Assembly (NCBI GenBank): GCA_016178075.1
Contig: JACOUA010000329.1
Coordinates: forward strand, 3,539 to 67,538
Source of the DNA: Acidobacteriota bacterium
GTDB lineage: Bacteria > Acidobacteriota > Vicinamibacteria > Vicinamibacterales > JACQTH01
Direction: 5' to 3'
Length of the DNA stretch: 64,000 nt
Shown here: positions 17,989 to 58,084 of the stretch, in pieces
How the letters are laid out: each line of letters starts with the position of its first letter
Numbering within the stretch: the stretch's first letter is position 1
Program-made: the position numbers and the translations under genes
Notes under the pieces: model-generated
Told to the model about the DNA's origin: nothing
Database searches by the model: none
What the model saw: only the letters and a program-made list of their open reading frames with translations

Positions 17989-18007
17989 CTTGTGATACGT
18001 TTCACCG

Positions 18008-22659: not shown

Positions 22660-23211
22660 CTATTCGCTCGCCAAGCGCGCCACCCGAATTGTGTAATCAA
22701 TCCCGGACACGAGTGTGATGGCGAGCGATCCGTACACGCACAACGCGATCACCCAGGACGATTCGTCCAGATAGTTGAAATACAGCGTTACCAGACAGGT
22801 CACGACGTACATCGCGGTCGCCGTTTTCCCGTAGATCGACGGGCGGAACGTTCGCGGGCCGACAGCGAGGTTGACGATCGCCACCGTCAGCACAATCAGC
22901 ACATCACGGCTGATGATGAGGACGGTCAGCCAGACCGGCAGACGGTTTCGCAGGCCGAGGCCCGGCAGCGTGAGGACCACAAAGGTGGTCACGAGGAGGA
23001 GCTTGTCGGCCATCGGATCGAGCCACGCGCCCAGATTCGTTTTCTGCCCGGACCGGCGCGCGATCACCCCATCGAGCGCGTCGGTCGACCCGGCGGCAAT
23101 CAGCACGATCAGCGCCCACCCGAGGTGGCCGTACACCACGAGGATCACGAAGGCCGGAATCAGCAGCACGCGCAGCAGGGTCAACTGGTTGGCGGTCGTG
23201 AGCGTCGTCAT
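22660..23211 (-). CDS. pgsA: CDP-alcohol phosphatidyltransferase (PgsA-like)
   Basis: DALDGVIARRSGQKTNLGAWLDPMADK matches the D-G-x2-A-R-x8-G-x3-D-x3-D motif. 183 aa, multi-TM. Confidence 0.85.
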   Translation of the reverse strand: MTTLTTANQLTLLRVLLIPAFVILVVYGHLGWALIVLIAAGSTDALDGVIARRSGQKTNLGAWLDPMADKLLLVTTFVVLTLPGLGLRNRLPVWLTVLIISRDVLIVLTVAIVNLAVGPRTFRPSIYGKTATAMYVVTCLVTLYFNYLDESSWVIALCVYGSLAITLVSGIDYTIRVARLASE

Positions 23212-23223
23212 ACGGGATGCCTG

Positions 23224-23308
23224 TAGTTTACAGTTCTCAGTTTTCAGTTTTCAGTTTTCAAGGCGCTGTTTCAACTGACGACTGACAACTGACAACTGAA
23301 AACTGTTC
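23224..23308. repeat. Heptamer-periodic inverted repeat, word CAGTTYT / ARAACTG
   Basis: ACAGTTCTCAGTTTTCAGTTTTCAGTTTTCA-aggcgctgtt-TCAACTGACGACTGACAACTGACAACTGAAAACTGT. The TCAGTT core pairs, with one mismatch per heptad. Confidence 0.88.
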
Positions 23309-23309
23309 T

Positions 23310-27855: not shown

Positions 27856-27984
27856 AAAAAGTTATCAGTGCACAGTTCTCAGTTTTCAGGTTCGGACCTC
27901 GCCTGCTGCGCCTCGGCGAAATCGCTTCGGCAGAGGCCGTGAGCTCCAAACTGCGAACTGTGAACTGACAACTGAAAACTTTCT
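27856..27984. repeat. Heptamer-periodic inverted repeat, word CAGTTYT / ARAACTG; probable intrinsic terminator of glpX on the minus strand
   Basis: AAAAAGTTATCAGTGCACAGTTCTCAGTTTTCAG ... ACTGCGAACTGTGAACTGACAACTGAAAACTTT. On the minus strand the hairpin is followed by TTTTT. Confidence 0.85.
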
Positions 27985-30282: not shown

Positions 30283-31080
30283 CTACGTTCTCGATGATTC
30301 AGCCACCGCGCGAACGGTCGCGCCACGACCGAGACCGAGGCGTCTGGCCGCGCTGTCACGGTTGGCGGCGATCTCGACGAACCCGCTGCTGCCGATGAGC
30401 GCGCAGACCTCTCCTTCCGCCACCTCGGCGTAGGTCGAGACGAAGCGATCGACGCGCTGCTCGCCCGCGTGCAGGCGCACGCCGCGATCCAGCGACGCCG
30501 ACGCGAGCGCGGCCCGATCGATGTTGGTGATCAGATTCCCGAAGCGATCCACGCGAAGGATGCAGCCGGCGATCGCGTGGGGCGACACCTGCGGCGCCGG
30601 AATCTCGAGGCGCTGGACGTCGTCGACGCGAGGCCCCAGATCCTCCAGCGGCGTACCACGAGCCAGCCAGCCGGCGGCGGGCGCGAACCGATCGCGTCCC
30701 TCGAACGTGCGGGTGACGTCGGGCAGCGCATATCGGGCGTTGGTCAGCTCGACGACCGACGCCGGGCGATCCGCGAGCACGCCGGTCAGGACACCGTTGT
30801 CGGGCGCGACGAACCGATAGCCTCCAGCGCTCGCGGCAATGCCGCGTCGTGCGGTCCCGACGGCGGGGTCCACCACCACGACGAACACCGTGCCGGCCGG
30901 AAAGAAGCGGTAGCTCGATCGGAGCTCGAGGCTGGCCGACAACACGTCCTGGGGCGGGATGTCGTGGGTGATGTCGACCAGCGTCGCCTCGTCACAGATG
31001 CCCAGGATCACGCCCTTCATCGTCCCGACGTAGTGATCCTGCAGGCCGAAGTCGGTCAGCAGGGCGATGACGGGTTTCAT
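30283..31080 (-). CDS. SAM hydroxide adenosyltransferase (DUF62; chlorinase/fluorinase-related)
   Basis: MKPVIALLTDFGLQDHYVGTMKGVILGI, VVVDPAVGTARRGI. Confidence 0.88.
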   Translation of the reverse strand: MKPVIALLTDFGLQDHYVGTMKGVILGICDEATLVDITHDIPPQDVLSASLELRSSYRFFPAGTVFVVVVDPAVGTARRGIAASAGGYRFVAPDNGVLTGVLADRPASVVELTNARYALPDVTRTFEGRDRFAPAAGWLARGTPLEDLGPRVDDVQRLEIPAPQVSPHAIAGCILRVDRFGNLITNIDRAALASASLDRGVRLHAGEQRVDRFVSTYAEVAEGEVCALIGSSGFVEIAANRDSAARRLGLGRGATVRAVAESSRT

Positions 31081-31083
31081 GAG

Positions 31084-31257
31084 AATTGACGATTGGCGAT
31101 TGGAGATTGACGATTGATTGTTGATTGGCGAATGGGCGGAATTGCCAGGAACGAAGGACGATTGAGAGCAATTCCGATCAGGCGTCCTTGATTCGTCAAT
31201 TCCGCGCCATCGTCAATCGCCAATCAATCCTCAATCGTCACTCGCCAATCGTCAATG
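31084..31257. repeat. ~175-nt nested hairpin, heptamer word GATTGRC / GYCAATC
   Basis: Left arm ATTGACGATTGGCGATTGGAGATTGACGATTGATTGTTGATTGGCG. Right arm CGCCATCGTCAATCGCCAATCAATCCTCAATCGTCACTCGCCAATCGTCAAT. The centre holds CGGAATTG..CAATTCCG and AAGGACG..CGTCCTT sub-hairpins. Confidence 0.88.
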
Positions 31258-33820: not shown

Positions 33821-34881
33821 TGCGAGTTGTCGTAGCCATGTCGGGCGGCGTGGATTCCTCCGTCGCCGCGGCCCTGCTCGTCGAGCAGGGGCACGAGGTC
33901 ATCGGGCTGTCGATGCAGCTCTACGATCAGCAGCAGGGCGAGGTGCGCTTTGGAAGCTGCTGCACGCTGGACGATCTCCACGACGCGCGGCGCGTGGCCC
34001 AGCGGCTCGGCATTCCGCACTACATCCTGAACTTCGAGCGGCAGTTCGACGATCACGTCGTCTCGAACTTCGTCCGCGAGTACCTGACGGGGCGCACGCC
34101 GATCCCGTGCGCGCACTGCAACAGTGACCTGAAGTTCTCGGCGCTGCTCGAGCGGGCGCGCGCGCTGGGTGCCGACGGCGTGGCGACGGGCCATTACGCC
34201 CGCGTCGCGCGCGGCGCCGCCGGCAGGCTGACGCTCCGGCGCGGCGCCGACCGGGCCAAGGACCAGTCCTATTTCCTGTTCTCCCTCACGCAGGATCAGC
34301 TCGATCACGCGCGGTTCCCGGTCGGGGACCTCGCGAAGTCCGAGGTCCGCGATCATGCGCGACGCCTCGACCTGCCGGTCGCCAACAAGCCCGACAGCCA
34401 CGAAATCTGCTTCATCCCCGACGGTGAGTACGCCGGGTTCGTCGAGCGTCATGCCGCCTCAGGCGTCGGAAGCGGGTGGATAATGAATCACGAAGGGCGC
34501 CCGCTTGGTCGTCACGACGGCATTCACCGGTTCACCGTCGGCCAACGGAAGGGGCTCGGTCTTTCGGGCGCGCATCCCTTGTACGTGCTGGAGCTTCGTC
34601 CCGAGTCGCAGACCGTCGTCGTCGGGCCGCGCGCCGCGCTCGAGAAGGTGACGCTGACCGCGTCCGGCGTGAACTGGGTCGGGGGCGCGCCTCCAGAGGC
34701 GCGCGTGACGGTCACCGCGCAGATTCGCCATCGGCACCAGGCCGCGCCCGCTTCCTGGCGTTCGCTCGCCTGTGATCGTCTCGCCCTCGAATTCGAGACG
34801 CCCCAAACCGCGATCACGCCCGGGCAGGCGGTGGTCCTGTATGACGGGGATGAAGTGCTGGGCGGAGGTTGGATCGATTAG
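33820..34881 (+). CDS. mnmA: tRNA 2-thiouridine(34) synthase
   Basis: MRVVVAMSGGVDSSVAA PP-loop, CAHCNS. TAATG overlap with the desulfurase. The ORF-track start 33298 is an upstream out-of-gene extension. Confidence 0.93.
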   Translation: MRVVVAMSGGVDSSVAAALLVEQGHEVIGLSMQLYDQQQGEVRFGSCCTLDDLHDARRVAQRLGIPHYILNFERQFDDHVVSNFVREYLTGRTPIPCAHCNSDLKFSALLERARALGADGVATGHYARVARGAAGRLTLRRGADRAKDQSYFLFSLTQDQLDHARFPVGDLAKSEVRDHARRLDLPVANKPDSHEICFIPDGEYAGFVERHAASGVGSGWIMNHEGRPLGRHDGIHRFTVGQRKGLGLSGAHPLYVLELRPESQTVVVGPRAALEKVTLTASGVNWVGGAPPEARVTVTAQIRHRHQAAPASWRSLACDRLALEFETPQTAITPGQAVVLYDGDEVLGGGWID

Positions 34882-35037
34882 GACCCGTCCCGGAATAAGT
34901 GTGCCATTCTGGGCGTCGAGGCGCCCGCCCGGCAAGGCGCGAGGAGCGCGCATACCGGGCGTATGTAAGCGACGAGCAACGAAGCCCGGCGGGATGCATC
35001 GGCGTCCAGAATGGTGCACTTATTCCGGGACGGGTCC
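34881..35037. mobile_element. MITE-like hairpin element with ~35-bp terminal inverted repeats and TTA flanks, inserted between the mnmA and trxB stop codons
   Basis: GGACCCGTCCCGGAATAAGTGTGCCATTCTGG ... CCAGAATGGTGCACTTATTCCGGGACGGGTCC. TTA lies on both sides (34878-80 and 35038-40). The core is shared with 49051-49255. Confidence 0.6.
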
Positions 35038-36009
35038 TTAGGCGGTCACTTGCGCTTCGCCGAGGTGCTGCGGGAGCCCCTCGAGGTATTTCTCGGCGTC
35101 CATCGCCGCCATGCACCCCGATCCTGCGGCCGTGACGGCCTGCCGGTACACGTGATCCTGCACATCACCGCAGGCGAAGACGCCCGGGACGTTGGTCCGC
35201 GCGCCCGAGTGCGTCAGGATGTAGCCGTTCGGATCCATCTCGAGCTGTCCGGTGAACAGCCTGGTGTTCGGTGTGTGGCCGATCGCCACGAACACGCCGT
35301 CGACCGCAAGACCGCCGGCCTCGCCGGTTGCCGTATTCGTCCACGTGAGGCCGGTCACCTCGCCCTTGTCGCCGGCGACGATGTCGTCGACGACGGTGTT
35401 CCAAAGGAACGAGATCTTCGTGTTGGCAAAGGCTTTGTCCTGCATGATCTTCGACGCCCTCAGCCGGTTGCGCCTGTGGATGACCGTCACGTGGGAGGCG
35501 AATTTCGTCAGAAACAGGGCTTCTTCCATCGCGGAATCGCCGCCGCCGACCACGGCGATCGGACGCCCTCTAAAGAAGTAGCCGTCGCACGTCGCGCACG
35601 TCGAGACGCCGTGCCCCATGAGGGTTCGCTCGCTCGGGAGGCCGAGCAGACGCGCCGACGCGCCGGTCGCGACGATGACCGTTCGGGCGCGATGGTTCTC
35701 GCCATCCGAGGTCACGACGAACGGCCGAGCCCTCAGATCCGCCGCGTTGACATCGCGAGCGATGAGCTCGGCACCGAACCGCTCGGCCTGCGCGCGCATT
35801 TCCGCCATCAGGTCCGGTCCCAGGATGCCTTCCCGGTGCCCCGGATAGTTCTCGACGAGCGTCGTCAGCATGAGCTGCCCGCCGGCCTCGGCCCCCTCGA
35901 ACACGAGCGGGTTGAGATTGGCGCGGGCGGCATACAGCGCCGCCGTCAGGCCGGCGGGGCCCGAGCCGATGACGATCACGTTGCGAAGGTCTGACATGTT
36001 CACTTTCAC
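35038..36009 (-). CDS. trxB: Thioredoxin-disulfide reductase
   Basis: [17 protein letters not shown], redox-active [16 protein letters not shown]. Confidence 0.93.
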
Positions 36010-36012
36010 TTC

Positions 36013-36116
36013 TGGCTGTCAGCTCTCAGCTGTCGGCTTTCAGCCGTCGGCCTACACCTTCATTCGAACTGCAGGTCTTGTTCTAGCTGAGAGCTGACAG
36101 CTGAGAGCTGAGAGCT
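36013..36116. repeat. Heptamer-periodic inverted repeat, word CAGCTNT / ANAGCTG
   Basis: GGCTGTCAGCTCTCAGCTGTCGGCTTTCAGC ... GCTGAGAGCTGACAGCTGAGAGCTGAGAGC, between the trxA stop and the trxB start. Confidence 0.88.
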
Positions 36117-36119
36117 TCC

Positions 36120-36452
36120 TTACGCATGCTTCTCCACCATCCGTTTGAGCTCGTCCTTCGACACCAGGCCGACGATCGACTCCACGATCTGACCGCCCTT
36201 GAAGAGCAGCAGCGTGGGGATCCCGCGGATGCTGTAGCGAAAGGGCACTTCCGGGTTCTCGTCGACGTTCATCTTGCCGATGACGACGCGCCCTTCCATC
36301 TCGGCGGCTAGCGCGTCAACGGCGGGGGCCAAGCGGCGGCACGGCGCACACCATTCGGCCCAGAAATCCACGAGCACCGGCTTGGCTGATTGGATCACGG
36401 CCTGATCGAAGTTCGTATCCGTAAAAGTCTGGACGTTGTCGGATGCCATCAC
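36120..36452 (-). CDS. trxA: Thioredoxin
   Basis: 110 aa, WAEWCAPCR active site. Confidence 0.94.
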   Translation of the reverse strand: MMASDNVQTFTDTNFDQAVIQSAKPVLVDFWAEWCAPCRRLAPAVDALAAEMEGRVVIGKMNVDENPEVPFRYSIRGIPTLLLFKGGQIVESIVGLVSKDELKRMVEKHA

Positions 36453-36458
36453 GTCACC

Positions 36459-37973
36459 TCATTCCGGCCTGACCACCGCATCGGGGTTCCCCGGCGCGTG
36501 TCGTCGGGCGTTCCTGTACAGTTCGACGTACTTCTGGGCCGAGGCGTCCCAGGAATAATCGCCCCGCATGCCGGCTTCCTGAATCCGGCGCCAATGGGCC
36601 CGGTTTCGATACGTCGCAAGGGCGCGCTCCAGGGCGCTCAGCAGGGCTTCCGGCGTGGGCTCGGCGAACTTGAAGCCGTTTCCCCGTCCGCTGATCGGGT
36701 CGAAATCCTCGACCGTATCGTCCAGCCCGCCCGTGGCTCGAACGACCGGGACCGTTCCATAGCGCAAGCTGTACATCTGATTCAGCCCACATGGCTCGTA
36801 CCGCGACGGCATGAGAAAGATGTCGGCCCCGCCTTCGATGAGGTGGGCCCGCGCTTCATCGAATCCAATGTGGGCCGCAATCCGCTCGGGAGCATTTCCC
36901 GCGAGCGCACGCCACATGTCCTCGTACCGGGCCTCGCCGTTCCCCAGCACGACGATGGAGGCATCGAGCCCAGTCAGCCGGCCCGCCAGCGCCTCGACGA
37001 GGTCGAACCCCTTCTGATCCACGAGCCGAGAGATCATCCCGACGAGGGGTCGAGCCATCGCGGCCTTGGAGCTGGGAAGCCCGAACCTGCGCAGGACCTC
37101 TCGCTTGGCGGCCTCTTTCCCCGTGAAATCGCATGCGTCGTACGGCTCGGGGAGAAACCGGTCGCGCCGCGGATCCCATTCATCGTAATCAATTCCGTTC
37201 AGAATGCCGACAAGGTCGGCCGCGCGCGCCCGGAGGATGCCTTCGAAGCCACATCCGTACTCCGGCGACTGAATCTCGATCGCGTATCGCGGACTCACGG
37301 TCGAGAGCGCGTCGCTGAACCCGACGCCGCCTTTGAGAAAACTGACCTGTCCGAAGTACTCCAGGCTGTCGAGAGCACCTGGCAAGAACACGTCGGGACC
37401 GAGATCCAGCGCCGGCAGCCATCCCTCGTCGGCCAACCCTTGGTACGCGAGATTGTGAATCGTGAAGACGACCGGCACGGCGTCCAGCCGCGCATGGCGG
37501 TGATAGAGCCGGCGGAGGTAGACGGGCAGGAGCCCCGCCTGCCAGTCGTGGGTGTGCAGCACGGATGTCGGCTCGTCGCGCTGCGCGAGGAGCTCGAGCG
37601 CGGCGCGCGACAAAAAGCCGAAACGCGCGGGATTGTCGGGATAATCGGCGCCGTCGACGGTGTACAGCCCGTCACGATCGAAGAACTCGGGACAGTCGAC
37701 GAAGATCATCTCGACGCGTTCGTGGAGGCGCTCGACGTAGTAGACCGCGGTGACGAGCCGCCCGCCCATCGGAATACTCGCGTCGGCGAGCCGCTCACCC
37801 GCCGAGATCCCGCGATACCGGGGCAGCAACACGGTAACGCGGTGCCCCAGCCGGCCGAGTGCGCGTGGAAGCGCGCCGAGCACGTCGCCGAGGCCGCCCG
37901 TTTTCGCGTACGGCGCGGCCTCGGATCCGACCATCACGATCGAGAGCGGCTCAGGCGGTTGCAACGCCAGCAT
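36459..37973 (-). CDS. glgA: Glycogen synthase (ADP-glucose type)
   Basis: SIVMVGSEAAPYAKTGGLGDV, PSRYEPCGL. ATG at 37973 (MLALQPPEPLSIVMV..) is preferred over the ORF-track start 38063. Confidence 0.92.
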   Translation of the reverse strand: MLALQPPEPLSIVMVGSEAAPYAKTGGLGDVLGALPRALGRLGHRVTVLLPRYRGISAGERLADASIPMGGRLVTAVYYVERLHERVEMIFVDCPEFFDRDGLYTVDGADYPDNPARFGFLSRAALELLAQRDEPTSVLHTHDWQAGLLPVYLRRLYHRHARLDAVPVVFTIHNLAYQGLADEGWLPALDLGPDVFLPGALDSLEYFGQVSFLKGGVGFSDALSTVSPRYAIEIQSPEYGCGFEGILRARAADLVGILNGIDYDEWDPRRDRFLPEPYDACDFTGKEAAKREVLRRFGLPSSKAAMARPLVGMISRLVDQKGFDLVEALAGRLTGLDASIVVLGNGEARYEDMWRALAGNAPERIAAHIGFDEARAHLIEGGADIFLMPSRYEPCGLNQMYSLRYGTVPVVRATGGLDDTVEDFDPISGRGNGFKFAEPTPEALLSALERALATYRNRAHWRRIQEAGMRGDYSWDASAQKYVELYRNARRHAPGNPDAVVRPE

Positions 37974-37998
37974 CAGTGATCGAGAATGATAACTGCTT

Positions 37999-38880
37999 GT
38001 GCCTCCCCCCGAGCAGCCCCGCCGACCCGTCCGCAGCCAGTCGCGGGAAGTTGTCGAGCTCAATCAGATTAAAGCCGCACACCCTGAGCTCGCGACGGCC
38101 GTCGACTTGCAGATCGAGCTCGTCGGCGTGCAGCGTCGCCTGCAGGCGCGGCTGCCGCTCCCCTGGATCGAAGTCGACGCCCGATGGCTGGCCGAAGAGC
38201 AGCGTCACGGGCGTCCGCTCGTTCGCTTCAAGGATCTGCGGCTCGAGTGGTCCGACGTGCGCTTCATGGTCCGGCAGGCCGCGGACGTGCTGCGGCGGTT
38301 CGACATGATCGAGTCCGACGATCACGCCAGGGTGCAGCACCTGATTCGTGAGGGGCATCAACTCGAGCCGCTCGTCGCGCGTTGGTATTCCACGCAGGCG
38401 TTCCCGGACGATCCGACGCCCGAGACGCCGCCGGTCGATCCGCCGATCTCGCCGGAAGCTCTCGAGTTGGTGCTGCTGTTCGCGATGCGGCCGTTCCTCG
38501 CGCGATGTGCCGAGATGCTGCTGCCACAGGTCGATCTGACCGCCTGGACGCATCCGCGATGTCCGCTGTGCGGCGGGGATCCGGAAATGGGCGCGCTCAA
38601 CGCGGCGGGCGACCGGATGCTGGTCTGCGGCCGGTGCACCGGCGCGTGGACGTTCGATTCGGGGGTGTGTCCGTTCTGTCGGAACGACGACCGAAGCCTC
38701 CTGAGCACCTTCACCGGCAGTGACCCCTGCTACCTCATCGAGGCGTGCAACGTGTGCCGTCGCTACATCAAGACGTTCGACAGCCGTCGGGGCACCAGAC
38801 CTTTCATGCTGGCGGTCGACTCGGTCGCCACGCTCCCGCTCGACGCGGCCGCGATGCAGAAGGGGTACACCGGTGGGTAA
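37999..38880 (+). CDS. FdhE-like protein (four CxxC motifs), no formate dehydrogenase nearby
   Basis: CPLCGG..CGRC..CPFC..CNVCRRYIKTFD matches the rubredoxin-like Cys pattern of FdhE. The start is uncertain. Confidence 0.7.
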   Translation: MPPPEQPRRPVRSQSREVVELNQIKAAHPELATAVDLQIELVGVQRRLQARLPLPWIEVDARWLAEEQRHGRPLVRFKDLRLEWSDVRFMVRQAADVLRRFDMIESDDHARVQHLIREGHQLEPLVARWYSTQAFPDDPTPETPPVDPPISPEALELVLLFAMRPFLARCAEMLLPQVDLTAWTHPRCPLCGGDPEMGALNAAGDRMLVCGRCTGAWTFDSGVCPFCRNDDRSLLSTFTGSDPCYLIEACNVCRRYIKTFDSRRGTRPFMLAVDSVATLPLDAAAMQKGYTGG

Positions 38881-38897
38881 CGAACAGAAAGCGCGCT

Positions 38898-39009
38898 GTA
38901 GTTTTCAGTTCTCAGTGCTCAGTTGTCAGTTCAAAGACTCCAGCCTGCGGCCGGTGTCCTTGAAAAACCACGGCGTCGGAAAACTGACAACTGAGAACTG
39001 AAAACTATT
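38898..39009. repeat. Heptamer-periodic inverted repeat, word CAGTTYT / ARAACTG, between convergent genes
   Basis: GTAGTTTTCAGTTCTCAGTGCTCAGTTGTCAGTT ... AAAACTGACAACTGAGAACTGAAAACTATTTT. Confidence 0.88.
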
Positions 39010-40045
39010 TTGTCGCGGGTTTCAGCCGTTCGGTGAGCCAGTTGAAGAGGTGCCGCGTTTCCCAGAATCGGCCCGCGTTCGACCGGGCGCCGAGGATCAC
39101 GACGGCGACTTGCTGGTTGAGGTCGGGAACCTGAAGGAGTGTCGCGAGACAGTACCCCGCCTTGCCGATGAAGCCGGTCTTGCTGGCGCGGACGTCCAGA
39201 TCGCCGCCGACCAGCTTGTTGGTGTTGTGGATCGTCACCGTGCGGCGGTTCGTGCTGACCTCGAACTCCGGCGTCCGCATGATGACGGCCATCCGCTGGT
39301 CGGTCCCGGCGTACGCGATCAACCGCGCCATGTCGTACGCAGACGAGACGTTGTCCGCACTGAGCCCGGACGGGTCGTGATACTCGGTGCTTCGCAGCCC
39401 GAGCTCGGCCGCCTTCTCGTTCATGCGGACGACGAACCCGGCGGGGCCGCGCGAAGAATAGCGCGCCAGCGTCCTCGCGGCCGCGTTGTCCGACGCGATG
39501 AGCGTCAGGTGCAGCACGTCGTCGAGCGACACCTGCTCGTTGGCGCGAAGATACGTGATCGACGCCCCGCGGACGTCGTTTCGATCGATCGTCACAGCGC
39601 GGTTGAGGTCGGGGCTGTCCTCGAGAAAGACCAGCGTCGTCATCACCTTCGTGATGCTCGCGATGGACCGCTGGTTCTGTGCGTTCTCTTCCCAGAGAAT
39701 CTCGCCGGTGTCCGGGTTGTAGATGATGGCCGCCTCGGCCCGAATGTCGGGCACGAGGTTGCCGTGCTGATCCATGCGGAAGCGCGGCGTCTGCGCTTCC
39801 TGCAGTTGTCGCGCACGCGCCGCCGCTTGCGCCCGAGCCAGACGTGCGCGCCTCGCCTGCGCCGCCGTCGAGGAGTAGGTCGGGCGCCTGGCCGCTGGCT
39901 TCTTGGCGGTCGTTCCCTGCCCGCACACCTGGGGGGCGTGGGCGAGGGAGATCCCAACCAGCGCGACAAAGACCCCGGCAGCCCGGAGAAGCCGAGCTTT
40001 CAACATGCCCGGATGTGTGATGGAAACTGACACCAAACGTGTCAT
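39005..40045 (-). CDS. D-alanyl-D-alanine carboxypeptidase (peptidase S11, PBP5/6-like)
   Basis: Signal peptide, SITK (SxxK), SDN, KTGF motifs in the canonical order. Confidence 0.88.
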   Translation of the reverse strand: MTRLVSVSITHPGMLKARLLRAAGVFVALVGISLAHAPQVCGQGTTAKKPAARRPTYSSTAAQARRARLARAQAAARARQLQEAQTPRFRMDQHGNLVPDIRAEAAIIYNPDTGEILWEENAQNQRSIASITKVMTTLVFLEDSPDLNRAVTIDRNDVRGASITYLRANEQVSLDDVLHLTLIASDNAAARTLARYSSRGPAGFVVRMNEKAAELGLRSTEYHDPSGLSADNVSSAYDMARLIAYAGTDQRMAVIMRTPEFEVSTNRRTVTIHNTNKLVGGDLDVRASKTGFIGKAGYCLATLLQVPDLNQQVAVVILGARSNAGRFWETRHLFNWLTERLKPATK

Positions 40046-42896: not shown

Positions 42897-45839
42897 ATGA
42901 GACGTTGGAGGATTGAGGTGTTGAGGCCAGTTCTGTACGTCGCTCTGCTGGCGCTCGCAATTGGGATCGCCAGCCCCGCGGCGGCGCAGGAGTTCCGCGG
43001 GCGCATCAGCGGAACCGTCACCGACAACAGCGGCGGCGTGCTCCCGGGCGTGACCGTCACCGCCACCAGCCCGGCGATGATTCAGCCGCAGGCGGTGGTG
43101 ACCGGCGCGGATGGCGTGTACCGCCTGATCGCGCTTCCGGCCGGCCTCTATACGGTGACGTTCGAGCTGTCTGGTTTCAACTCGCTCAAGCGCGAGGGGA
43201 TCCGCGTCGTCATCAACCAGACATTGACGCTGAACGCCGAGCTGCAGGTCGCCTCACTGCAAGAGACCGTGACGGTGAGCGGTGAGTCGCCCGTTGTCGA
43301 CACGTCGACGACCACGGTCGGCACGAACTTCACGAAGGAGCTGCTGACCGAGATTCCGAACGCACGTGACATCTGGGCAGCCATGGCGCAAGCCCCTGGC
43401 TTCCAGGTGACCGGCTACGATGTCGGTGGCTCGCACACCGGAACTCAGACCGGCTACGTTACCTACGGCGTCAGCCAGCAGAACACCACTCGGATCGACG
43501 GTGTCAACACGAGCGAGGGCACGAGCGCCAACGCCGGGTACTTCGACTTCGGGTCGTTCGAAGAGTTCCAGCTCGGCGGCGCCGGGAACGACGCCGCACA
43601 GGACGTGCCCGGCGCGTCGCTGAACATCACCGTCAAGTCCGGCGGCGACCGGTTCAGCGGCAACTGGTACAGCGACTGGGAGAACCACAGCACCATCAGC
43701 GACAACGTGCCCGACTACCTCAAGACGCCGTTCCAGAAGAGCAGCGACGGATTCTTCACCCGGACGGCCGTTCAACGTGGCAATCAGATCGATCGGCAGT
43801 ACGACATCAACCCGAACGTCGGCGGCCCGCTCTGGAGAGGCAAGGCGTGGTTCTTTACCTCGTGGCGTCTCAACGATCAATACAAGTACGTGCTCGGGTT
43901 CGACGAGCTCGCGCGGTCGAAGCTCAGCAACAAGTACACCCTGAAGGGTACGTTCCAGCTCTCGAAGAACAACCAGCTCATCGCCTTCCTCAACAAGCGC
44001 GAGAAGCTGCAGGCCCTGCGCGAGTTTGGCCCGACCGTCCCGCTGTCGGCCGCCTACTATCAATCGTCTCGGAACTATCCGTGGAAGTTCGAGTGGACGA
44101 GCGTGCTGTCGAGCCGCATGTTCCTCGATGTGCTGGCAGGCAACTGGTACAACTTCTTCCCGCTGCGACCGCAGACCGAGGTGGGCGTGTGGCCGATCGA
44201 CAAGTTCGTGCCCGGGCGAATCAACCTGAACGACAACACCTATTTCGCGGGCGGCGCGAACGATTCATATCAGGACCAGAAGCGGTTCAAGCCGCAGACG
44301 TTGACGACCCTTTCGTTCTTCCAGGACGGGTGGCACGGCGCACACGACTTCAAGTTTGGCTTCGAGGCGCGCCGCGACCGTCGCATCCTCGGAAACGACG
44401 AGCCGTTCAACATCTTCTACCGCGACAGAGACGGTGTCCCCTCCGAACTTGAAATCTACAACGGTCCCGTGGCGCCGACCAACGACGTCAACGTGCGCAG
44501 CGCGTTCGTGCAGGACAACTGGAAGTTCAACGAGAAGCTGACGCTCAACCTCGGCTTCAGGGTCGATCACTACACCGACGGCTGGCCCGAGCAGCAGTTC
44601 GCGCCGGCAGGCGTTCCCGCGCTGGCCAACGCGACCGATCCGCGGATCGTCAGCTTCTTCGCGGCGAAAACGATTTCGGCGCAGATTGTGGCGAGATCGA
44701 CAACGGCCGGACCCCGCGCCGGGTTCGCGTACGACCTGGCGGGCAATGGGAAGTCGGTCGTCAAGGGCTACTACGGCCGGTTCTATTTCAACTCCGCCGA
44801 CCTGATTGCCGACAACCAAAACCCGGTGGGGTTCGCCCGACTGCGGTATCAGTTCAGGGACGCCAACGGCAACAAGCTCCTCGACAGCCCGGCCGAATTG
44901 GGAAATTTCATCACGACGGCCGGCGGCGGCGGGTTCGTCACGGTCGATCCGAACCTGAAACGGCCCTACGGCGACGAGGTGTCGGCGCACTACGAGCAGG
45001 AGATTCGAGAAGGTCTCTCGGGTCGCTTCTCGTATGTCTACAAGAACCTCCGCAATGAGTGGGCGGAGGTCGACCTCGGCCGCGTCAACGCCCAGACCAT
45101 TCCCGTCAACGTCGTCGATCGAGGACCCGACGGGATTCTGGGTAATGCGGATGATGCGACCCGAACGCTGTACGACATCCCGGCCGGGACGCCGAGCCAG
45201 CGCACGTTCACGAATCCGACGAGCCCGCAGTACAACTCCGACTACAACACGGTGGAGTGGGCGGTCAACCGGCGGCTCAAGGGCGGCTGGATGGTGCTGA
45301 CATCGTTCGAGTACTCCTGGCTGAAGGAGTTCGTCGGCGCCACGTCTTCGACGAGCAGCACCGGCGCGGCGGGGAACACGAAGACGTACTCGTGGAACCG
45401 CAACCTCCGGCAGGCGGATCGCGAAACCACGACGATCTGGAACTACAAGCTGATCGGACGATACATGCTGCCGCTAGAGGTCGGGATCAGCGGGTCGTAC
45501 AAGCTCCAGAGCGGACGCCGGTGGGGCCGCGCCGTGAGCTTGAGCGTGCCGAACCTGGGCGCCCAGACCGTCCGCGTGGAACCCGTCACCTCGCATCGCG
45601 CCCCGAACGTCAGCATCGTCGATCTCCGGTTCGACAAGTCGATCAAGATTCCGGGGAACAACGGTGGCCGCTTGACCGCGATGGTGGACGTGTTCAACCT
45701 GTTGAACTCGGATGTCCCCATTACGTTTCGTACGCTGACCGGCAACGTGGCGGCCGGACAGCCGTACGGCAACTTCGGGGAAGTGACCGCGATCCTCGAC
45801 CCGCGCATCGTGCGGTTCGGCATCCGGTACGACTTCTAA
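42897..45839 (+). CDS. TonB-dependent receptor-like outer-membrane protein with an N-terminal carboxypeptidase-regulatory-like domain (paralogue 1)
   Basis: Signal peptide, GRISGTVTDNSGGVLPGVTVTATSP...DGVYRLIALPAGLYTVTFELSGF, large beta-barrel, C-terminal ..RIVRFGIRYDF. GGAGGG RBS 6 nt before the ATG. Confidence 0.88.
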   Translation: MRRWRIEVLRPVLYVALLALAIGIASPAAAQEFRGRISGTVTDNSGGVLPGVTVTATSPAMIQPQAVVTGADGVYRLIALPAGLYTVTFELSGFNSLKREGIRVVINQTLTLNAELQVASLQETVTVSGESPVVDTSTTTVGTNFTKELLTEIPNARDIWAAMAQAPGFQVTGYDVGGSHTGTQTGYVTYGVSQQNTTRIDGVNTSEGTSANAGYFDFGSFEEFQLGGAGNDAAQDVPGASLNITVKSGGDRFSGNWYSDWENHSTISDNVPDYLKTPFQKSSDGFFTRTAVQRGNQIDRQYDINPNVGGPLWRGKAWFFTSWRLNDQYKYVLGFDELARSKLSNKYTLKGTFQLSKNNQLIAFLNKREKLQALREFGPTVPLSAAYYQSSRNYPWKFEWTSVLSSRMFLDVLAGNWYNFFPLRPQTEVGVWPIDKFVPGRINLNDNTYFAGGANDSYQDQKRFKPQTLTTLSFFQDGWHGAHDFKFGFEARRDRRILGNDEPFNIFYRDRDGVPSELEIYNGPVAPTNDVNVRSAFVQDNWKFNEKLTLNLGFRVDHYTDGWPEQQFAPAGVPALANATDPRIVSFFAAKTISAQIVARSTTAGPRAGFAYDLAGNGKSVVKGYYGRFYFNSADLIADNQNPVGFARLRYQFRDANGNKLLDSPAELGNFITTAGGGGFVTVDPNLKRPYGDEVSAHYEQEIREGLSGRFSYVYKNLRNEWAEVDLGRVNAQTIPVNVVDRGPDGILGNADDATRTLYDIPAGTPSQRTFTNPTSPQYNSDYNTVEWAVNRRLKGGWMVLTSFEYSWLKEFVGATSSTSSTGAAGNTKTYSWNRNLRQADRETTTIWNYKLIGRYMLPLEVGISGSYKLQSGRRWGRAVSLSVPNLGAQTVRVEPVTSHRAPNVSIVDLRFDKSIKIPGNNGGRLTAMVDVFNLLNSDVPITFRTLTGNVAAGQPYGNFGEVTAILDPRIVRFGIRYDF

Positions 45840-45902: not shown

Positions 45903-45932
45903 AGAGGCCGGGTTCACCCGGCCTCTTTTTTT
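45903..45932 (+). terminator. Rho-independent terminator (AGAGGCCGG-gttcac-CCGGCCTCT + T7)
   Basis: 9-bp GC-rich stem followed by TTTTTTT. Confidence 0.85.
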
Positions 45933-46038
45933 GTACGTCGCCCTCTCTTGCCGTTAGCGGCTCTACTCCGCTACAGTTCACGCTTATACTCCACGTATCG
46001 GGCGGCCGTCTCAGCGATCTACCGAGGAGGGCAGTTTC

Positions 46039-48939
46039 ATGAGACCTCGAAGCATCGGCCTTTGGGTCGCGCTGATCGCGCTGGCGATCGGCCTGGCCAC
46101 CCCCGCGGCGGCCCAAGAGCTCCGTGGGCGCATCACCGGCACGGTCACCGACAACACCGGTGCCGTGCTACCTGGCGTCTCGGTCACGGCCAGCGGACCC
46201 GCGCTCATCCAGCCGCAGAGCAGCGTCACTGGAGCCGATGGGAGCTACCGCTTCCCGGCGCTCCCGACCGGCGTCTTCACCTTGACGTATGAGCTTGCGG
46301 GATTCCAGACGCTCAAGCGCGAACAGATCCGCCTGGGGTTGAACATGACCCTGACGGTGAACGTCGAGCTGCAGCTCTCGTCGCTGCAGGAAACCGTGAC
46401 GATCACCGGTGAATCACCCACGGTCGACGTCAAGACCACCGCCATCGGGACCAACTTCACCAAGGAGCTGCTGCAGGACATTCCCAACGCACGGGACATT
46501 TGGGCGGCGATGGCGCAGGCCCCAGGGTTCCAGATGACCGGCTTCGACGTCGGCGGGTCGCACACCGGGACGCAGACGGGGTACATCACCTACGGTGTCG
46601 GCGACCAGAACAAGACGTTTCTCGAGGGCATCAACGTGACTGAAGGCACCGGCGGAAACGCCGGCTACTTCGACTTTGGATCCTTCGAGGAATTTCAGCT
46701 CGGTGGCGCCGGCAACATGGGAGAGCAAGCGGGCCCCGGCGCGTTCCTCAACCTGACCATCAAATCGGGGGGCGATCGATTCGCCGGGCAGTTCTACCTG
46801 GACTACGAAAACGATGCCACGATCTCGGACAACGTGCCGAGCGCTTTCAAAGCGCCGGGCGGTGTCGACTCACGCGGGTTCAAGGCCCCAACGATCCGCG
46901 ACCCGGCGACCGGACAGTTGTTGGGCCTGGCGCGCGGCAACCCGATCACCAAGCAGTACGACCTGAACGTGAATGGCGGCGGCCCGATCAAGCGCGGCAA
47001 GGCCTGGTTTTTCACGAGCTACCGCGACAACAATCAGTACACGACGATTTTGGGCCTTCCCGGGGTGACCGCGCAGAGTCAGCTCGTGAACTGGCCGACG
47101 CTCAAGGGCACGTATCAGATCAGCAAGAGCAATCAGTTCATCGCCTTCTACAACGAGCGATCCAAGCTGCAACCGCTGCGCGGCCTCTCGCTTGCCCGGC
47201 CTGCGGAATCGGCACAGTGGCAGGATTCGAAGAACCGGCCGCAAAAGTACGAGTGGACGAGCGTCCTTTCCCAGCGGGCGTTCCTCGACATTCAGTACTC
47301 GTACTGGGGTAACTACTTCCCGCTCTTCCCGACGCAGACGAAGTCCACGTCGACCGAGGGAGTCCCCGTCGGTCGCATCGACCTCACGACCAACCAGGAG
47401 TCCGGCGCCAACGTCCTGTACCACTTCCGCACGACGCTGAAGCCGCAGTTCTCGGGAAGCCTTGCCTACTTCCAGGACAACTGGGGCGGCACGCACAACT
47501 TCAAGTTCGGGTTCGAGGCGTATCGCGAGCGGAGGAAGTTCCTCCGCTTCCAACCGGGCAACATCTACTACCGGGATCGCGAGGGCCGGCCGTCGGAAGT
47601 CGACATCTACAACACCCCCAATGAAGCCGCCGACGATTCCAATAGCCTGAGCATTTACGTCCAGGATGGGTGGAGCGTCTCGCGGGCGCTGACCATCAAT
47701 GCCGGGGTTCGGCTGGATCACTACAGGCTCGGCTGGCCGGCTCAGAGCTTCACACCTGAGCAAACGCAGTACTTCCAGCCGGTCAACACGCCCGACACGA
47801 CCGTCGCGAAGTTCAATTCGGTGAGCCCGCGCGTGGGGCTCGCCTGGGATTTCGGCGGACAAGGAAAGAGCGTCGTCAAAGCCTTTTACGGACGCTTCTA
47901 CTACAACCCCAGCACCGACATCAGCTCGTTGGAGAATCCCGTGAGTCAGTCGGCCCGGCGCTACCAGTTCAACGACCTGAACGGAAACCGGGTGCTCGAC
48001 GGGCCGCAAGAGCTGGGACGCTTACTGTCGAGCGTGGGCGGTGGCGGCAACGTGAGGGTCGATCGCGATCTCGAGCACGCCTGGGGCCAGGAAGTCTCGA
48101 CGCATTTCGAGCGCGAGCTGGCCGAGGCGCTCTCGGCTCGAGTCTCCTACGTGTACAAGGGCACGCGAAACGGGTGGGCCGAGGTGGACCTCGCTCGAGT
48201 CAATGCTTATACAGCGCCGTTCCCATTTGTGGATGTCGGGCCCGACAACATTCGCGGCACATCAGACGACCAGACGCTCAATCTCTTCGATCGCCCGGCT
48301 GGCACTCCGAGTCAACGAACGTTCACGAATCCCGGACGCATTCAGGGAGTGCCGGCGTACGAGGGTGATTACCACACCATCGAGCTGGCGCTAAACCGCC
48401 GGTTCAAGGACAAGTGGCTCCTCCTCACGTCGTTCGAACAAACCTGGGCCGACGACTTCCGCGGCACGGGCGTGGGAACTGGGACACTCGCGACGGTGCA
48501 ACAGGGCACGGCGTTCCTCTGGCAGCCGAACCGGCGACGCCTGGGTCGAGAAGCGACCACGTTCTGGAACTACAAGGCGATCGGCCGCTATGTCTTCCCC
48601 TGGGACATCGGCGTCAGCGGGTCCTACAAGTTCCAGAGCGGCTTCAACTACGCGAGAACGATCAGCGTAAGCCTGCCCATCGCCGGAAGCGAAGAGATCC
48701 GGACCGGGCCACTAAAGGACACCCGCGCCCAAAACGTCCACATCGTTGATGTGCGGCTCGAGAAGATGATCAACTTCGGTGCTCGCCGCGGAAAGTTCAG
48801 CGCCATGGTCGACGTTTTCAACGCGCTGAACGCGAACCCGCTGACCAACTTCCGCGTCGTCACCGGGTCGCGCTACAACGAAGTGATCGCGCTGCTCGAT
48901 CCGCGCATCGTGCGGTTCGGCGTGCGGTACGAGTTCTAG
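46039..48939 (+). CDS. TonB-dependent receptor-like outer-membrane protein with a carboxypeptidase-regulatory-like domain (paralogue 2)
   Basis: Collinear with paralogue 1 (GRITGTVTDNTGAVLPGVSVTASGP...; ..RIVRFGVRYEF). Same GGAGGG-N6-ATGAGA translation start context. Confidence 0.88.
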   Translation: MRPRSIGLWVALIALAIGLATPAAAQELRGRITGTVTDNTGAVLPGVSVTASGPALIQPQSSVTGADGSYRFPALPTGVFTLTYELAGFQTLKREQIRLGLNMTLTVNVELQLSSLQETVTITGESPTVDVKTTAIGTNFTKELLQDIPNARDIWAAMAQAPGFQMTGFDVGGSHTGTQTGYITYGVGDQNKTFLEGINVTEGTGGNAGYFDFGSFEEFQLGGAGNMGEQAGPGAFLNLTIKSGGDRFAGQFYLDYENDATISDNVPSAFKAPGGVDSRGFKAPTIRDPATGQLLGLARGNPITKQYDLNVNGGGPIKRGKAWFFTSYRDNNQYTTILGLPGVTAQSQLVNWPTLKGTYQISKSNQFIAFYNERSKLQPLRGLSLARPAESAQWQDSKNRPQKYEWTSVLSQRAFLDIQYSYWGNYFPLFPTQTKSTSTEGVPVGRIDLTTNQESGANVLYHFRTTLKPQFSGSLAYFQDNWGGTHNFKFGFEAYRERRKFLRFQPGNIYYRDREGRPSEVDIYNTPNEAADDSNSLSIYVQDGWSVSRALTINAGVRLDHYRLGWPAQSFTPEQTQYFQPVNTPDTTVAKFNSVSPRVGLAWDFGGQGKSVVKAFYGRFYYNPSTDISSLENPVSQSARRYQFNDLNGNRVLDGPQELGRLLSSVGGGGNVRVDRDLEHAWGQEVSTHFERELAEALSARVSYVYKGTRNGWAEVDLARVNAYTAPFPFVDVGPDNIRGTSDDQTLNLFDRPAGTPSQRTFTNPGRIQGVPAYEGDYHTIELALNRRFKDKWLLLTSFEQTWADDFRGTGVGTGTLATVQQGTAFLWQPNRRRLGREATTFWNYKAIGRYVFPWDIGVSGSYKFQSGFNYARTISVSLPIAGSEEIRTGPLKDTRAQNVHIVDVRLEKMINFGARRGKFSAMVDVFNALNANPLTNFRVVTGSRYNEVIALLDPRIVRFGVRYEF

Positions 48940-49017
48940 GCACGAAGGCACGAGGGCTGGCCGCGCCCGGGCACGGTGAGGCGCGGCCGACCCCACAAGG
49001 ACACGAAGAAGACTGTG

Positions 49018-49044
49018 AGGCCGGGGTTACCCGGCCTTTTTTTT
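49018..49044 (+). terminator. Rho-independent terminator (GGCCGGG-gtta-CCCGGCC + T8)
   Basis: 7-bp GC stem followed by TTTTTTTT. Confidence 0.85.
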
Positions 49045-49050
49045 AGCTTA

Positions 49051-49255
49051 GTACCGCGTTTCATAATTACGGTGAGGCACCGAGGGCGCCGAGGCGCCCG
49101 CCCCGCAAGGCGCGAGGAGGGAGAATACCGGGAGTATTTGACCGACGAGCAACGCCGCGGAACCGGGGCCCCCAACGCGCGTTTTCCAGCGCGTTGGGGT
49201 GGTGGGGCGGGATGCATCGGCGGCCGAATGCCACCGTAATTATGAAACGCGGTAC
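49051..49255. mobile_element. Composite MITE-like hairpin element: 25-bp perfect terminal inverted repeats, TTA flanks, shared core and a nested CCCCAACGCG module
   Basis: GTACCGCGTTTCATAATTACGGTG ... CACCGTAATTATGAAACGCGGTAC, with TTA on both sides. The core GAGGCGCCCGCC..GCAAGGCGCGAGGAG..ATACCGGG.GTAT..GACGAGCAACG..GGCGGGATGCATCGGCG is shared with 34881-35037. CCCCCAACGCGCGTTTTCCAGCGCGTTGGGGTGG (~49170-49210) is nested inside. Confidence 0.6.
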
Positions 49256-49257
49256 TT

Positions 49258-49349
49258 AGGACTCACGACTCAAGGCTCATGGAGAAGGCATTCTATGAGC
49301 CATAAGACGTCAGCCGTGGGCCATGAGCCGTCAACCGTGAGCCGTGCCG
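49258..49349. repeat. Heptamer-type inverted repeat, word GAGCCNT / ANGGCTC
   Basis: GGACTCACGACTCAAGGCTCATGG ... CCATGAGCCGTCAACCGTGAGCCGTGCC, immediately upstream of the spermidine-synthase-like gene. Confidence 0.65.
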
Positions 49350-53160: not shown

Positions 53161-54063
53161 TTGACGTCCTTCCCCCAGCCAGACGCTCTCATCCGAACAG
53201 ATACGGCCACGCTTCGGTTTTGCGCCGGAGACTGTCTCGATCTGCTTGCCAGGCTCGAGCGCGCCAGCGTGGACGTGGTCGTCACGTCGCCTCCCTACAA
53301 CCTGGGTATTCGTTACAGCACCTACCGCGACTCGCTTCCGCGTGACCAGTACCTGGACTGGACGGCGCACTGGGTACAGGCGGTCGCGCGTGTGCTTGCG
53401 CGGGACGGGTCGCTCTTTCTGAACGTCGGGGCCAAGCCAAGCGATCCGTGGGCGGCGCTCGACGTTGCCCAGGCGGTCCGGCCGTTTCTCTACTTGCAGA
53501 ACACGATTCATTGGGTCAAGTCGATCGCGATCGATCAGGATGCGGCGGGGGCGGCCGCGGAGCTGACCCGGGGCCTCGCGCTCGGACACTACAAGCCGAT
53601 CAACAGCCGGCGATTTCTGAACGACTGTCACGAGTTCATCTTCCATTTCACCCCCACGGGCGAGACGCCGCTCGAGCGACAAGCGATCGGCGTGCCCTAT
53701 CAGGACACCTCGAACATCGGCCGTTGGCAGTCCGCCGCAGGCGGCCTGCGGTGTCGGGGCAACACCTGGTTCATGCCCTACGACACGATCCAGGATCGCG
53801 CCCGCGAGCGCCCTCACCCGGCGACCTTTCCGGCACGGCTACCCGAGTACTGCATCCGGCTCCATGGCCGGGAGCGCGTTCGACTCGTGGTCGATCCGTT
53901 CCTCGGCCTGGGCAACACCGCGGTCGCCTGCGCGCGGCTCGGCGTCGATTTCATCGGGTTCGAGGTCGATCGGGAGTATCTGATGGAGGCGGCGGCCCGA
54001 ACGCGAAAGGATGTCGAGTCCCGACGAACGCTGTTCGACAACGTGGAGCCGGTTGAACGGTGA
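53161..54063 (+). CDS. Site-specific DNA methyltransferase, beta class (N4-cytosine or N6-adenine), no cognate nuclease seen
   Basis: Motif IV VVTSPPYNLG near the N-terminus and motif I DPFLGLGNTAVACARLG near the C-terminus (N6_N4_Mtase order). TTG start. Confidence 0.88.
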   Translation: MTSFPQPDALIRTDTATLRFCAGDCLDLLARLERASVDVVVTSPPYNLGIRYSTYRDSLPRDQYLDWTAHWVQAVARVLARDGSLFLNVGAKPSDPWAALDVAQAVRPFLYLQNTIHWVKSIAIDQDAAGAAAELTRGLALGHYKPINSRRFLNDCHEFIFHFTPTGETPLERQAIGVPYQDTSNIGRWQSAAGGLRCRGNTWFMPYDTIQDRARERPHPATFPARLPEYCIRLHGRERVRLVVDPFLGLGNTAVACARLGVDFIGFEVDREYLMEAAARTRKDVESRRTLFDNVEPVER

Positions 54064-54080: not shown

Positions 54081-54181
54081 GCAGGCTCTAGGCTCCGGGC
54101 TTTAGGCTTGAGGCCTATTCCCGAGCCGGCTTCACCTGATCACGGTCAGGCCCAAAGCCACGAGCCTAAAGCCTAGAGCCA
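54081..54181. repeat. Heptamer-type inverted repeat, word AGGCTNN / NNAGCCT
   Basis: CAGGCTCTAGGCTCCGGGCTTTAGGCTTGAGGCC ... GGCCCAAAGCCACGAGCCTAAAGCCTAGAGCC. Confidence 0.8.
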
Positions 54182-54774: not shown

Positions 54775-54777
54775 ATC

Positions 54778-57050: not shown

Positions 57051-57053
57051 TCT

Positions 57054-58058: not shown

Positions 58059-58084
58059 CTAGGCGCGCACAGCGCGCCTGCGAG

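Follow-up and report, generated by a model that had tools for sequence, protein, structure and literature searches.

An inverted heptad-repeat tract between convergent acidobacterial genes is probably a slippage-built hairpin whose all-frame stop codons are incidental

Why should a tract of heptanucleotide repeats between two convergent genes place a stop codon in every reading frame of both strands? The question is raised by the element at positions 38899-39007 of a 64,000-nt stretch of contig JACOUA010000329.1 (assembly GCA_016178075.1; the whole stretch is called the window below), a sequence of 62-70% G+C that protein searches place in Acidobacteriota, near Vicinamibacterales. The original prediction, made from the letters of this DNA, was that such tracts may serve as frame-independent translation stops at gene boundaries. 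In the analysis reported here the frames proved to be really closed, whereas the stops as the reason for the existence of the tracts were not established. The tract is probably one member of a class of intergenic heptanucleotide-repeat hairpins that are built by slippage with coupling between the two arms, that would form 3′ structures of the repetitive extragenic palindrome (REP) type when transcribed, and in which the stops are incidental.

The focal element exactly occupies the gap between its two convergent neighbours. On the left, an FdhE-like gene (37999-38880, + strand), delimited by its open reading frame (ORF) and the G+C content at third codon positions (GC3), encodes a product with weak matches to FdhE_C, FdhE_central and TIGR01562 that occurs in exactly this form in assembly GCA_016197075.1; the gene ends at its own TAA (38878-38880), 18 nt ahead of the left arm. 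On the right, a D-alanyl-D-alanine carboxypeptidase gene (Peptidase_S11, Pfam PF00768, E=3.4e-46; 39005-40045, - strand) encodes a protein ending in ...RLKPATK, and its stop TAG, read on the - strand, is the final three bases, CTA, of the outermost heptad of the right arm. The arms are inverted arrays of the words AGTTNTC and GANAACT. In + strand letters, the left arm (38899-38932) consists of TAGTTTTC followed by AGTTCTC, AGTGCTC, AGTTGTC and AGTTC, and the right arm (38979-39007) of GAAAACT, GACAACT, GAGAACT, GAAAACT and a final A. Tandem Repeats Finder (TRF) assigned period 7 to both, with 4.7 copies at 38900-38932 and 4.0 copies at 38979-39006, and both are heptanucleotide tandem repeats in the sense of at least three head-to-tail 7-nt copies. 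Between them lies a unique centre of 46 nt (38933-38978) with its own GC-rich inner stem-loop at ~38930-38965 (CAAAGACTCCAGCC-TGC-GGCCGGTGTCCTTG). On either strand, a single long imperfect hairpin is predicted for the element as a whole (-58.3 and -59.9 kcal/mol; z = -5.4 and -6.1), and 0 of 200 shuffles folded equally well. Its 7-nt periodicity and inverted symmetry are thus far beyond chance. A search of the whole window against Rfam 15 gave 0 matches at gathering score, and at E<=1 the region 38800-39100 gave only chance matches to miRNA-precursor hairpins, of at most 20 bits against gathering scores of 54-104.

The stops themselves lie largely as described from the letters. TGA recurs every 7 nt on the + strand, at 38985, 38992 and 38999 (mod 3 = 0, 1 and 2), and the complementary arm closes the - strand with TGA at 38933-31, 38928-26, 38921-19, 38914-12 and 38907-05, in all three frames; the left arm (38899-38932) carries these five on the - strand and 0 TGA on the + strand. 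Further + strand stops in the element are TAG at 38899 and TGA at 38961. The literal string CTGAAAACTGACAACTGAGAACTGA that had been quoted for the arm is absent from this DNA, the first unit reading CGGAAAACTGA (CGG, not CTG), and AAAACTGACAACTGAGAACTGA begins at 38980. The other word families named at the same time are present and carry stops as claimed, and the words GGGATTC and ATTGCGG carry none. Since 7 is coprime to 3, any stop-bearing heptamer array of at least three units closes all three frames, and the TGA triplets in all frames are probably an arithmetic by-product of a stop-bearing word at period 7. The focal element holds 11 stops where dinucleotide shuffling gives 7.7 (P=0.06), and in 15% of its shuffles, too, every frame of both strands is closed; taken alone, its all-frame closure is not beyond chance. 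Of 15 elements in the window, 7 have every frame of both strands closed, where shuffles would lead one to expect 2.4, and element-by-element dinucleotide shuffling gave 102.7 +/- 6.3 stops against 143 observed, an excess that is overstated and was not relied on, because the units of a tandem array are copies of one seed and not independent.

The focal element belongs to a numerous class. A period-7 scan together with TRF found about 29 arrays, which make up about 16 elements in 64 kb, roughly one per 4 kb; most are inverted pairs with 4-5 units per arm and a unique centre, and 13 of the 16 are clear inverted pairs. At least eight words coexist within these 64 kb. The stop-bearing ones are AACTGAN (6 elements), AGCTGAN (2), GTGAGAA (2), GATTGAC, TGAGCCN and AGGCTNT, the stop-free ones GGGATTC (2 elements) and ATTGCGG (1), and 4-5 units per arm are found whatever the word. 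Long hairpins are predicted for 15 of the 16 (z -2.5 to -10.6, either strand), the exception being the single array at 61364. An all-against-all comparison of the element centres revealed no shared sequence, and the focal centre was not found in any other element. At the variable seventh position of the words, in-register complementarity is not kept in 3 of 8 elements, which leaves one mismatch per heptad there; the arms of these three are homogeneous internally but unlike each other at the seventh base, which indicates that this base is free rather than covarying.

The placement of the class is equally regular. On a gene map built from GC3 in this analysis, convergent genes flank three elements and co-directional genes about 12, each of the three clear convergent pairs that have a spacer has an element in it, and arrays were found in 0 of 5 clear divergent spacers, a small sample. 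All 16 elements are in spacers or overlap gene ends by at most 37 nt; the gap from the upstream stop codon to the array ranges from -37 to +24 nt and is mostly 0-5, and elements often finish 0-18 nt ahead of the next start codon. The flanking genes are ordinary housekeeping genes, some of which look co-transcribed (a glycosyltransferase cluster, trx-trxB and rpoZ-coaBC).

Comparison with relatives showed that both arms of each element always carry one word and can switch word together, and that elements appear, vanish or are replaced between near-identical strains. At the fdhE/S11 junction, the two stop codons abut with no spacer in four relatives (contigs L014, L016, L018 and L019), a GC hairpin alone is present in L015, and a GC hairpin with arrays of other words is found in L001 and L013 (GGATTCN) and in L006 (GCAGAGT). 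The closest distinct relative, L024 (JGI 3300045502 Ga0494960_00001694), whose glpX protein is 93% identical, has AGTTATG on the left and CANAACT on the right at this site, in place of the AGTTNTC and GANAACT of the window; the two differ by a C:G to G:C swap of one base pair in nearly every unit of both arms. The element at the glpX/MFS junction (27860-27980) is 88% identical in L024 and differs by an exact 7-nt indel (CAGTTCG), so that copy number has changed here by a whole unit between relatives; array changes in whole 7-nt units are the mark of replication slippage. At the trx-trxB site (36014-36119) the two genes overlap in L024 and there is no element, and compact orthologous spacers of more distant relatives likewise lack elements. 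Array density is highest in the window, at 0.3 per kb, and 0 to 0.2 per kb in the relatives. In the element of this sister lineage (L024, 1-150), an internal duplication, ACTCGCTGTCGTTATGAGTTATG (twice), lies inside a 9-unit TTATGAG array, and there is no GC-rich centre, which indicates that arrays can absorb or lose a central hairpin.

The turnover is most striking in contigs of GCA_016197075.1, which are 99.7-99.9% identical to the window in genes yet differ from it at three elements. The element at 23225-23307 is missing from contig L022, where a different short spacer stands instead (compared over 23211-23316); in L011 (JACPWL010000042.1) a different single array replaces 36014-36119 (differing stretch 35997-36120); and the focal element of L011 has an 80-nt deletion, 38941-39020, which removes the S11 stop, so that the S11 ORF there is closed two codons further on by a TGA on the margin of the left arm. 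Flank identity falls to 98.2% beside one of the differing elements. Four other elements are identical: those at 27860 and 31080 are so in L022, those at 54083 and 54777 in both L020 and L021, and in L020 the right arm of a fifth (49296-49346) is colinear. In the Logan contig L023 the element at 23225-23307 is unchanged, and from their unchanged elements the Logan assemblies match the window throughout. The differences in GCA_016197075.1 are either strain polymorphism or recombination, or short-read mis-assembly at palindromes; elements of this kind break or collapse when assembled from short reads, and gene callers are misled by them at the ends of genes. A search of metagenome contigs for the exact 28-nt flank pattern gave 0 matches, and a protein-profile scan gave 8 loci only.

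These observations suggest that the process of origin couples the two arms, beyond slippage alone. In the mechanism that we favour, arrays would grow by slippage on the flanks of a pre-existing, and thus older, GC terminal hairpin; the arms might be kept alike through hairpin-templated copying from one to the other or through selection for pairing; and growth of the array would halt on reaching coding sequence at either end. In a transcript, the long imperfect hairpin would most likely be a structure of the REP type, acting as a barrier to 3′-exonucleases and as a weak and leaky terminator or a processing site. The focal hairpin is probably not a canonical intrinsic terminator.

Several findings weigh against this account. 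Its role at the 3′ end of RNA is one that we infer, and the fold energies do not favour it: about 5 elements are more stable in sense and 5-6 in antisense, so there is no consistent sense-strand advantage and nothing here points specifically to selection at the RNA level; the seventh base, often mismatched once per heptad, is no pointer to RNA-specific selection either. Some elements sit inside likely operons, as in the glycosyltransferase cluster and at trx-trxB and rpoZ-coaBC, and the elements lack a T tract, while GC-stem terminators with a tail of up to T8 are present at 45903 and 49017. The strain differences rest on one short-read metagenome-assembled genome and may in part be assembly artefacts. 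Finally, pure slippage of random seeds accounts neither for the excess of TGA words described below (P=0.012; 0.02-0.04 after merging) nor for the occurrence of the same words (TAACTGA, GGGAWTC) in distant phyla.

Whether the stops are selected was assessed at the level of the words, and the evidence is weak and depends on the null. When the letters of each word were permuted, 6 of the 8 families in the window bore a stop against 4.67 expected (P=0.27), and among the locus-word combinations in 234 kb (window and relatives) 15 of 26 did so against 15.6 expected (P=0.70); the enrichment of stop-bearing words that the stop reading called for was thus not seen with this null. Against GC-matched genomic 7-mers, a null that respects TA avoidance, a modest excess did appear, with any stop in 14 of 22 families against 0.43 per family (P=0.04) and TGA in 12 of 22 against 0.295 per family (P=0.012), although the 22 families are not fully independent; after related words had been merged, TGA was found in 6/10 to 7/11 against 0.295 per family (P 0.02-0.04). 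Out-of-frame stops lie nearer to the ends of genes that are followed by an element (median 71 vs 214 nt, P=0.0009), a comparison that is confounded because most element-free gene ends precede coding DNA. Among 63 ARCTGAN units, the C, T and G are conserved at 0.98, 0.97 and 0.95 and the A of TGA at 0.84, with TGA lost in 12 of 63. Whichever strand is read, the arm that bears the stops is the 3′ (far) one in all 8 ARCTGAN elements, so that a ribosome leaving either gene meets the stop-free arm and the centre first; counted over the whole class, the stop-bearing arm is far in 9 elements and near in 2. Every adjacent gene has its own stop, and only two genes use the first triplet of the array as that stop. 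Stop-codon usage did not differ significantly between element-adjacent genes (5 TAA, 5 TAG, 5 TGA) and the others (17/28 TGA; P=0.12).

With these results, it is unlikely that selection maintains the heptad tracts as cassettes that stop translation in any frame and on both strands at the gene boundaries of a stop-poor, GC-rich genome. The closure of all frames in the focal element, as in 7 of the 15 elements counted, the raised stop total, the nearer off-frame stops and the TGA excess would all fit such a role, as would two events in relatives: after the word switch in L024 (CTGA to CTCA/TGAG) either strand still has a TGA, and the S11 ORF of the L011 deletion variant is capped two codons on by the TGA at the left-arm edge. 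The shuffle scores behind the first of these are inflated by the dependence among array units, letter permutation finds no excess at the word level, and the CTG core is better conserved than the A that completes the TGA. A refined version, in which the far-arm stops offer a last chance of termination before a hairpin-defined mRNA 3′ end and so avoid non-stop stalling, takes in the far position of the stop-bearing arm, which together with the flanking genes' own stops otherwise argues against a cassette. Stop-free words (GGGATTC, ATTGCGG, GCAGAGT, CAGAATC and ATTTGCC) are common, some occurring in the window and many in its relatives, many relatives have no spacer at all at the fdhE/S11 site, and elements are lost between strains 99.8% identical. 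Moreover, the published excess of off-frame stops is found mainly in AT-rich and not in GC-rich genomes (PMC5909447), the expected selective advantage is tiny, and a stop function leaves the inverted arms in co-directional spacers unaccounted for. The all-frame-stop reading is weakly supported and is not needed to explain the tract. We see a slim prospect that hairpins of TGA words are retained as compact all-frame, both-strand stop cassettes at gene ends, where ribosomes that are out of frame, have read through or enter antisense would terminate ahead of a hairpin-defined mRNA 3′ end rather than stall or run into the neighbour gene; in that case the modest TGA excess and the TGA-preserving word switch of L024 would be the footprint of such selection. 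Selection for the stops, if real, would make the tracts the first intergenic device by which translational errors are controlled, and would shed new light on the way in which GC-rich genomes manage with few off-frame stops; the present evidence does not carry that claim.

Three other accounts set the stops aside and compete with the slippage-built hairpin on different ground. That the hairpins are primarily transcription terminators of a tail-less type, bidirectional between convergent genes, is unlikely, even though every element lies downstream of a stop codon and divergent spacers have none, though the hairpins are very stable on either strand and occupy all three clear convergent spacers, and though transcripts of Xanthomonas start or stop at such repeats more than at controls (PMC4692102). 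No T tract follows the stem: the sequence past the focal stem, TATTTTGTCG on the + strand and CAGCGCGC on the - strand, is not that of an intrinsic terminator, and a scan for consensus terminators gave no site at the focal element and window-wide counts not above those of shuffles. With a U-rich 5′ arm and an A-rich 3′ arm, the arrangement is opposite to that of a bidirectional terminator, some elements separate genes that are likely co-transcribed and reach to within 0-18 nt of the next start codon, and presence or absence varies between near-identical strains. Canonical terminators with 9-10-bp GC stems followed by T7 or T8 do occur elsewhere in the window (45903-45933 and 49017-49046, both + strand), and these two textbook cases indicate that the organism uses canonical terminators alongside the tail-less heptad hairpins. 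An action at the level of DNA, in which the arrays are multi-site binding platforms or non-B DNA (G-quadruplexes (G4), clusters of GANTC methylation, or gyrase or nucleoid-protein sites as in bacterial interspersed mosaic elements (BIMEs)), we regard as improbable. In the GGGATTC arrays there are four or more G3 runs, as in the GGGNATC repeats that form G4 (PMC4692102), each GGGATTC unit holds a GANTC although this site is depleted overall (219 in the window vs 380.7 +/- 16.7 after dinucleotide shuffling), the window contains a gene for a PF01555 methylase, and the symmetric, strand-neutral stability fits a constraint on DNA. Most words of the window, however, are A/T-rich and unable to form G4, the preference for 4-5 units in all words weakens the G4 rationale, and eight unrelated words would require eight binding specificities, for which there is no candidate protein. 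Highly improbable, finally, is that the elements are non-autonomous mobile elements, akin to MITEs (miniature inverted-repeat transposable elements) or to REP doublets forming hairpins (REPINs), whose terminal inverted repeats happen to be heptad arrays. Their size of about 50-180 nt, their palindromic and intergenic character, their presence, absence and replacement between strains and their position between genes that overlap in relatives would suit mobility. Against it, the centres are unique, the words differ between elements and there are no target-site duplications; at 23225 the flanking spacer differs as well, so that this is not a clean insertion, and a true MITE in the window (49050-49256) is quite unlike them. 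With no common internal sequence and no target-site duplications, mobility is largely refuted. No RAYT-like (REP-associated tyrosine transposase) gene was seen among the scanned window genes, and the elements are not REP, BIME or REPIN sequences in the strict sense.

Several further features of the window were noted beside these subjects. Both intrinsic terminators follow paralogous genes for CarboxypepD_reg/TonB-type outer-membrane proteins (42897-45839 and 46039-48939). The MITE-like insertion at 49050-49256 has 25-bp perfect terminal inverted repeats (AGTACCGCGTTTCATAATTACGGTG) and (C)TTAG flanks, and is absent from the 99.7%-identical contig L020. A core related to it (87% over 71 nt) lies at 34879-35040, in the convergent mnmA/trxB spacer, with different inverted ends and TTAG flanks, and a core fragment at 58082-58124; these insertions have no Rfam match. 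The PF01555 (N6_N4) DNA methylase gene (53161-54063, + strand) is an orphan and only weakly CcrM-like. Long antisense or out-of-frame ORFs of 100-530 aa overlap real genes, for example 36390-37979 (+) against 36459-38063 (-), as is expected at 66% G+C.

The remaining elements illustrate the range of the class. AACTGAN words are found at 3002-3049, between the convergent genes for an M50 peptidase and PriA, whose stops lie at 3001 and 3052 respectively, at 15710-15805 between two glycosyltransferase genes, at 23225-23307, at 27860-27980 after glpX, and at 10958-11066, where (TCAGTTT)n faces (AACTGAT)n with one T-T mismatch per heptad and the right arm (11030-11066) consists of exact TAACTGA repeats. 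To the right of this last element, ~800 nt (11067-11867) contain no ORF with coding-like GC3 and gave no Rfam match. AGCTGAN words occur at 36014-36119, between trx and trxB, and at 57051-57173. The longest element, at 31080-31256, is built of GATTGAC, folds at -99 kcal/mol and bears its stops in the near arm; TGAGCCN is found at 49252-49346 and AGGCTNT, in the forms CTAGG, TTAGG and TTGAGG, at 54083-54180. The GTGAGAA element at 54777-54859 separates two convergent genes, and the first TGA of its array doubles as the stop (54850-54852) of the gene on the - strand. The stop-free elements are that of ATTGCGG at 7232-7295, with a weak partner arm, between rpoZ and coaBC, and those of GGGATTC at 17892-17989 and at 61364-61409, the latter (read as CCCGAAT) a single unpaired array 2 nt after a stop codon. 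At 17892-17989 the upstream ORF reads through the left arm: a GT2 glycosyltransferase ORF (17077-17928, + strand) crosses the stop-free arm (17892-17926) and ends at a TAG just past it, its last roughly 12 codons thus being encoded by the repeat. Stop-bearing arrays, unlike this read-through arm, begin after the stop codon.

REP sequences and BIMEs of enterobacteria are imperfect palindromes in 3′ and inter-cistronic spacers that are absent from divergent promoter regions; stabilisation of mRNA 3′ ends and weak termination have been proposed as their roles, and they have a family consensus and a link to the RAYT transposase. The elements of the window resemble them as imperfect palindromes in convergent and co-directional spacers with none in divergent ones, and differ in having unique centres and no consensus beyond a locally repeated 7-mer. 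Among the short tandemly repeated repetitive (STRR) sequences of cyanobacteria are the heptamer words CCCCAGT and CAACAGT, in which the ACTG/CAGT core recurs. Heptanucleotide units, an intergenic bias, many loci and variable copy number are shared with these and with the long simple-sequence repeats (LSSRs) of prokaryotes, whereas the paired hairpin architecture and the coupled change of words set the window apart from such simple direct arrays as they have been described. According to the account of Mrazek (2007) given in PMC4679880, heptamers are the commonest LSSRs in prokaryotes, and polymerase slippage was proposed for them.

The closest described relatives of the focal element are most likely the inverted GGGAATC pairs of Xanthomonas. 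There, 70-75 inverted pairs are made up of GGGAATC arrays and lie no more than 50 bp from stop codons, with about 4 units preferred, and heptamer repeats of Nostoc have the unit GGGGA(C/T)T (Rehm et al. 2015, PMC4692102). The Xanthomonas pairs are under-represented between divergent ORFs, differ in length from species to species and have no known function (PMC4692102). Like the repeats of both genera, those of the window are tandem 7-nt units, usually in about 4 copies, with many inverted pairs able to form stem-loops, and as in Xanthomonas they lie near or overlap stop codons (<=50 bp), are rare between divergent ORFs and vary among close relatives; the elements at 17892-17989 and 61364-61409 even use the near-identical word GGGATTC. 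Unlike the G-rich GGGNATC, the focal word GANAACT/AGTTNTC has no G-runs, and the window differs further in its mostly A/T-rich, non-G4 words, at least eight of them in 64 kb, in the unique GC-rich inner hairpin and in its acidobacterial host. Stop-codon content is not discussed in the Xanthomonas paper (PMC4692102).

The unit itself is shared with another family. TAACTGA direct repeats have been described in marine Beggiatoaceae, Cyanobacteria and Bacteroidetes (MacGregor 2015, PMC4679880), with 169 direct sets against one inverted, mostly just upstream of start codons, and a role in translation initiation was proposed (PMC4679880). In forward orientation they read LITDN-stop and so cannot extend into genes, which was treated as a constraint on placement (MacGregor 2015, PMC4679880). 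The unit recurs in the window exactly at 11030-11066 and as AAACTGA, CAACTGA and GAACTGA (NAACTGA) in the focal element, although here it forms inverted pairs after stop codons with a variable position 7, and the focal pair lies between two stops. As for the stops, the ambush hypothesis and the idea of back-up stops see such codons as catching frameshifted or read-through ribosomes (PMC3700767; PMC5909447); the excess of off-frame stops is seen mainly in AT-rich genomes, and GC-rich genomes have been proposed to prevent frameshifts instead (PMC5909447). Unlike the tracts of the window, those are off-frame stops inside coding sequences or in-frame tandem stops, and a stop cassette would share the ambush logic, extended to intergenic DNA.

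Within the searchable library, a literature search on heptamer hairpins in Acidobacteria found no description of them. The present elements show an uncultured Vicinamibacterales-like acidobacterium to hold a dense set of heptad hairpins of the kind seen in Xanthomonas, Nostoc and Beggiatoaceae, which brings in a new phylum and words that are not G-rich. To the published picture they add that the preference for 4-5 units also holds for words unable to form G-quadruplexes, which weakens an explanation by G4, that both arms change word jointly, and that elements turn over between 99.8%-identical strains. These points make the old question of how heptamer repeats originate more approachable.

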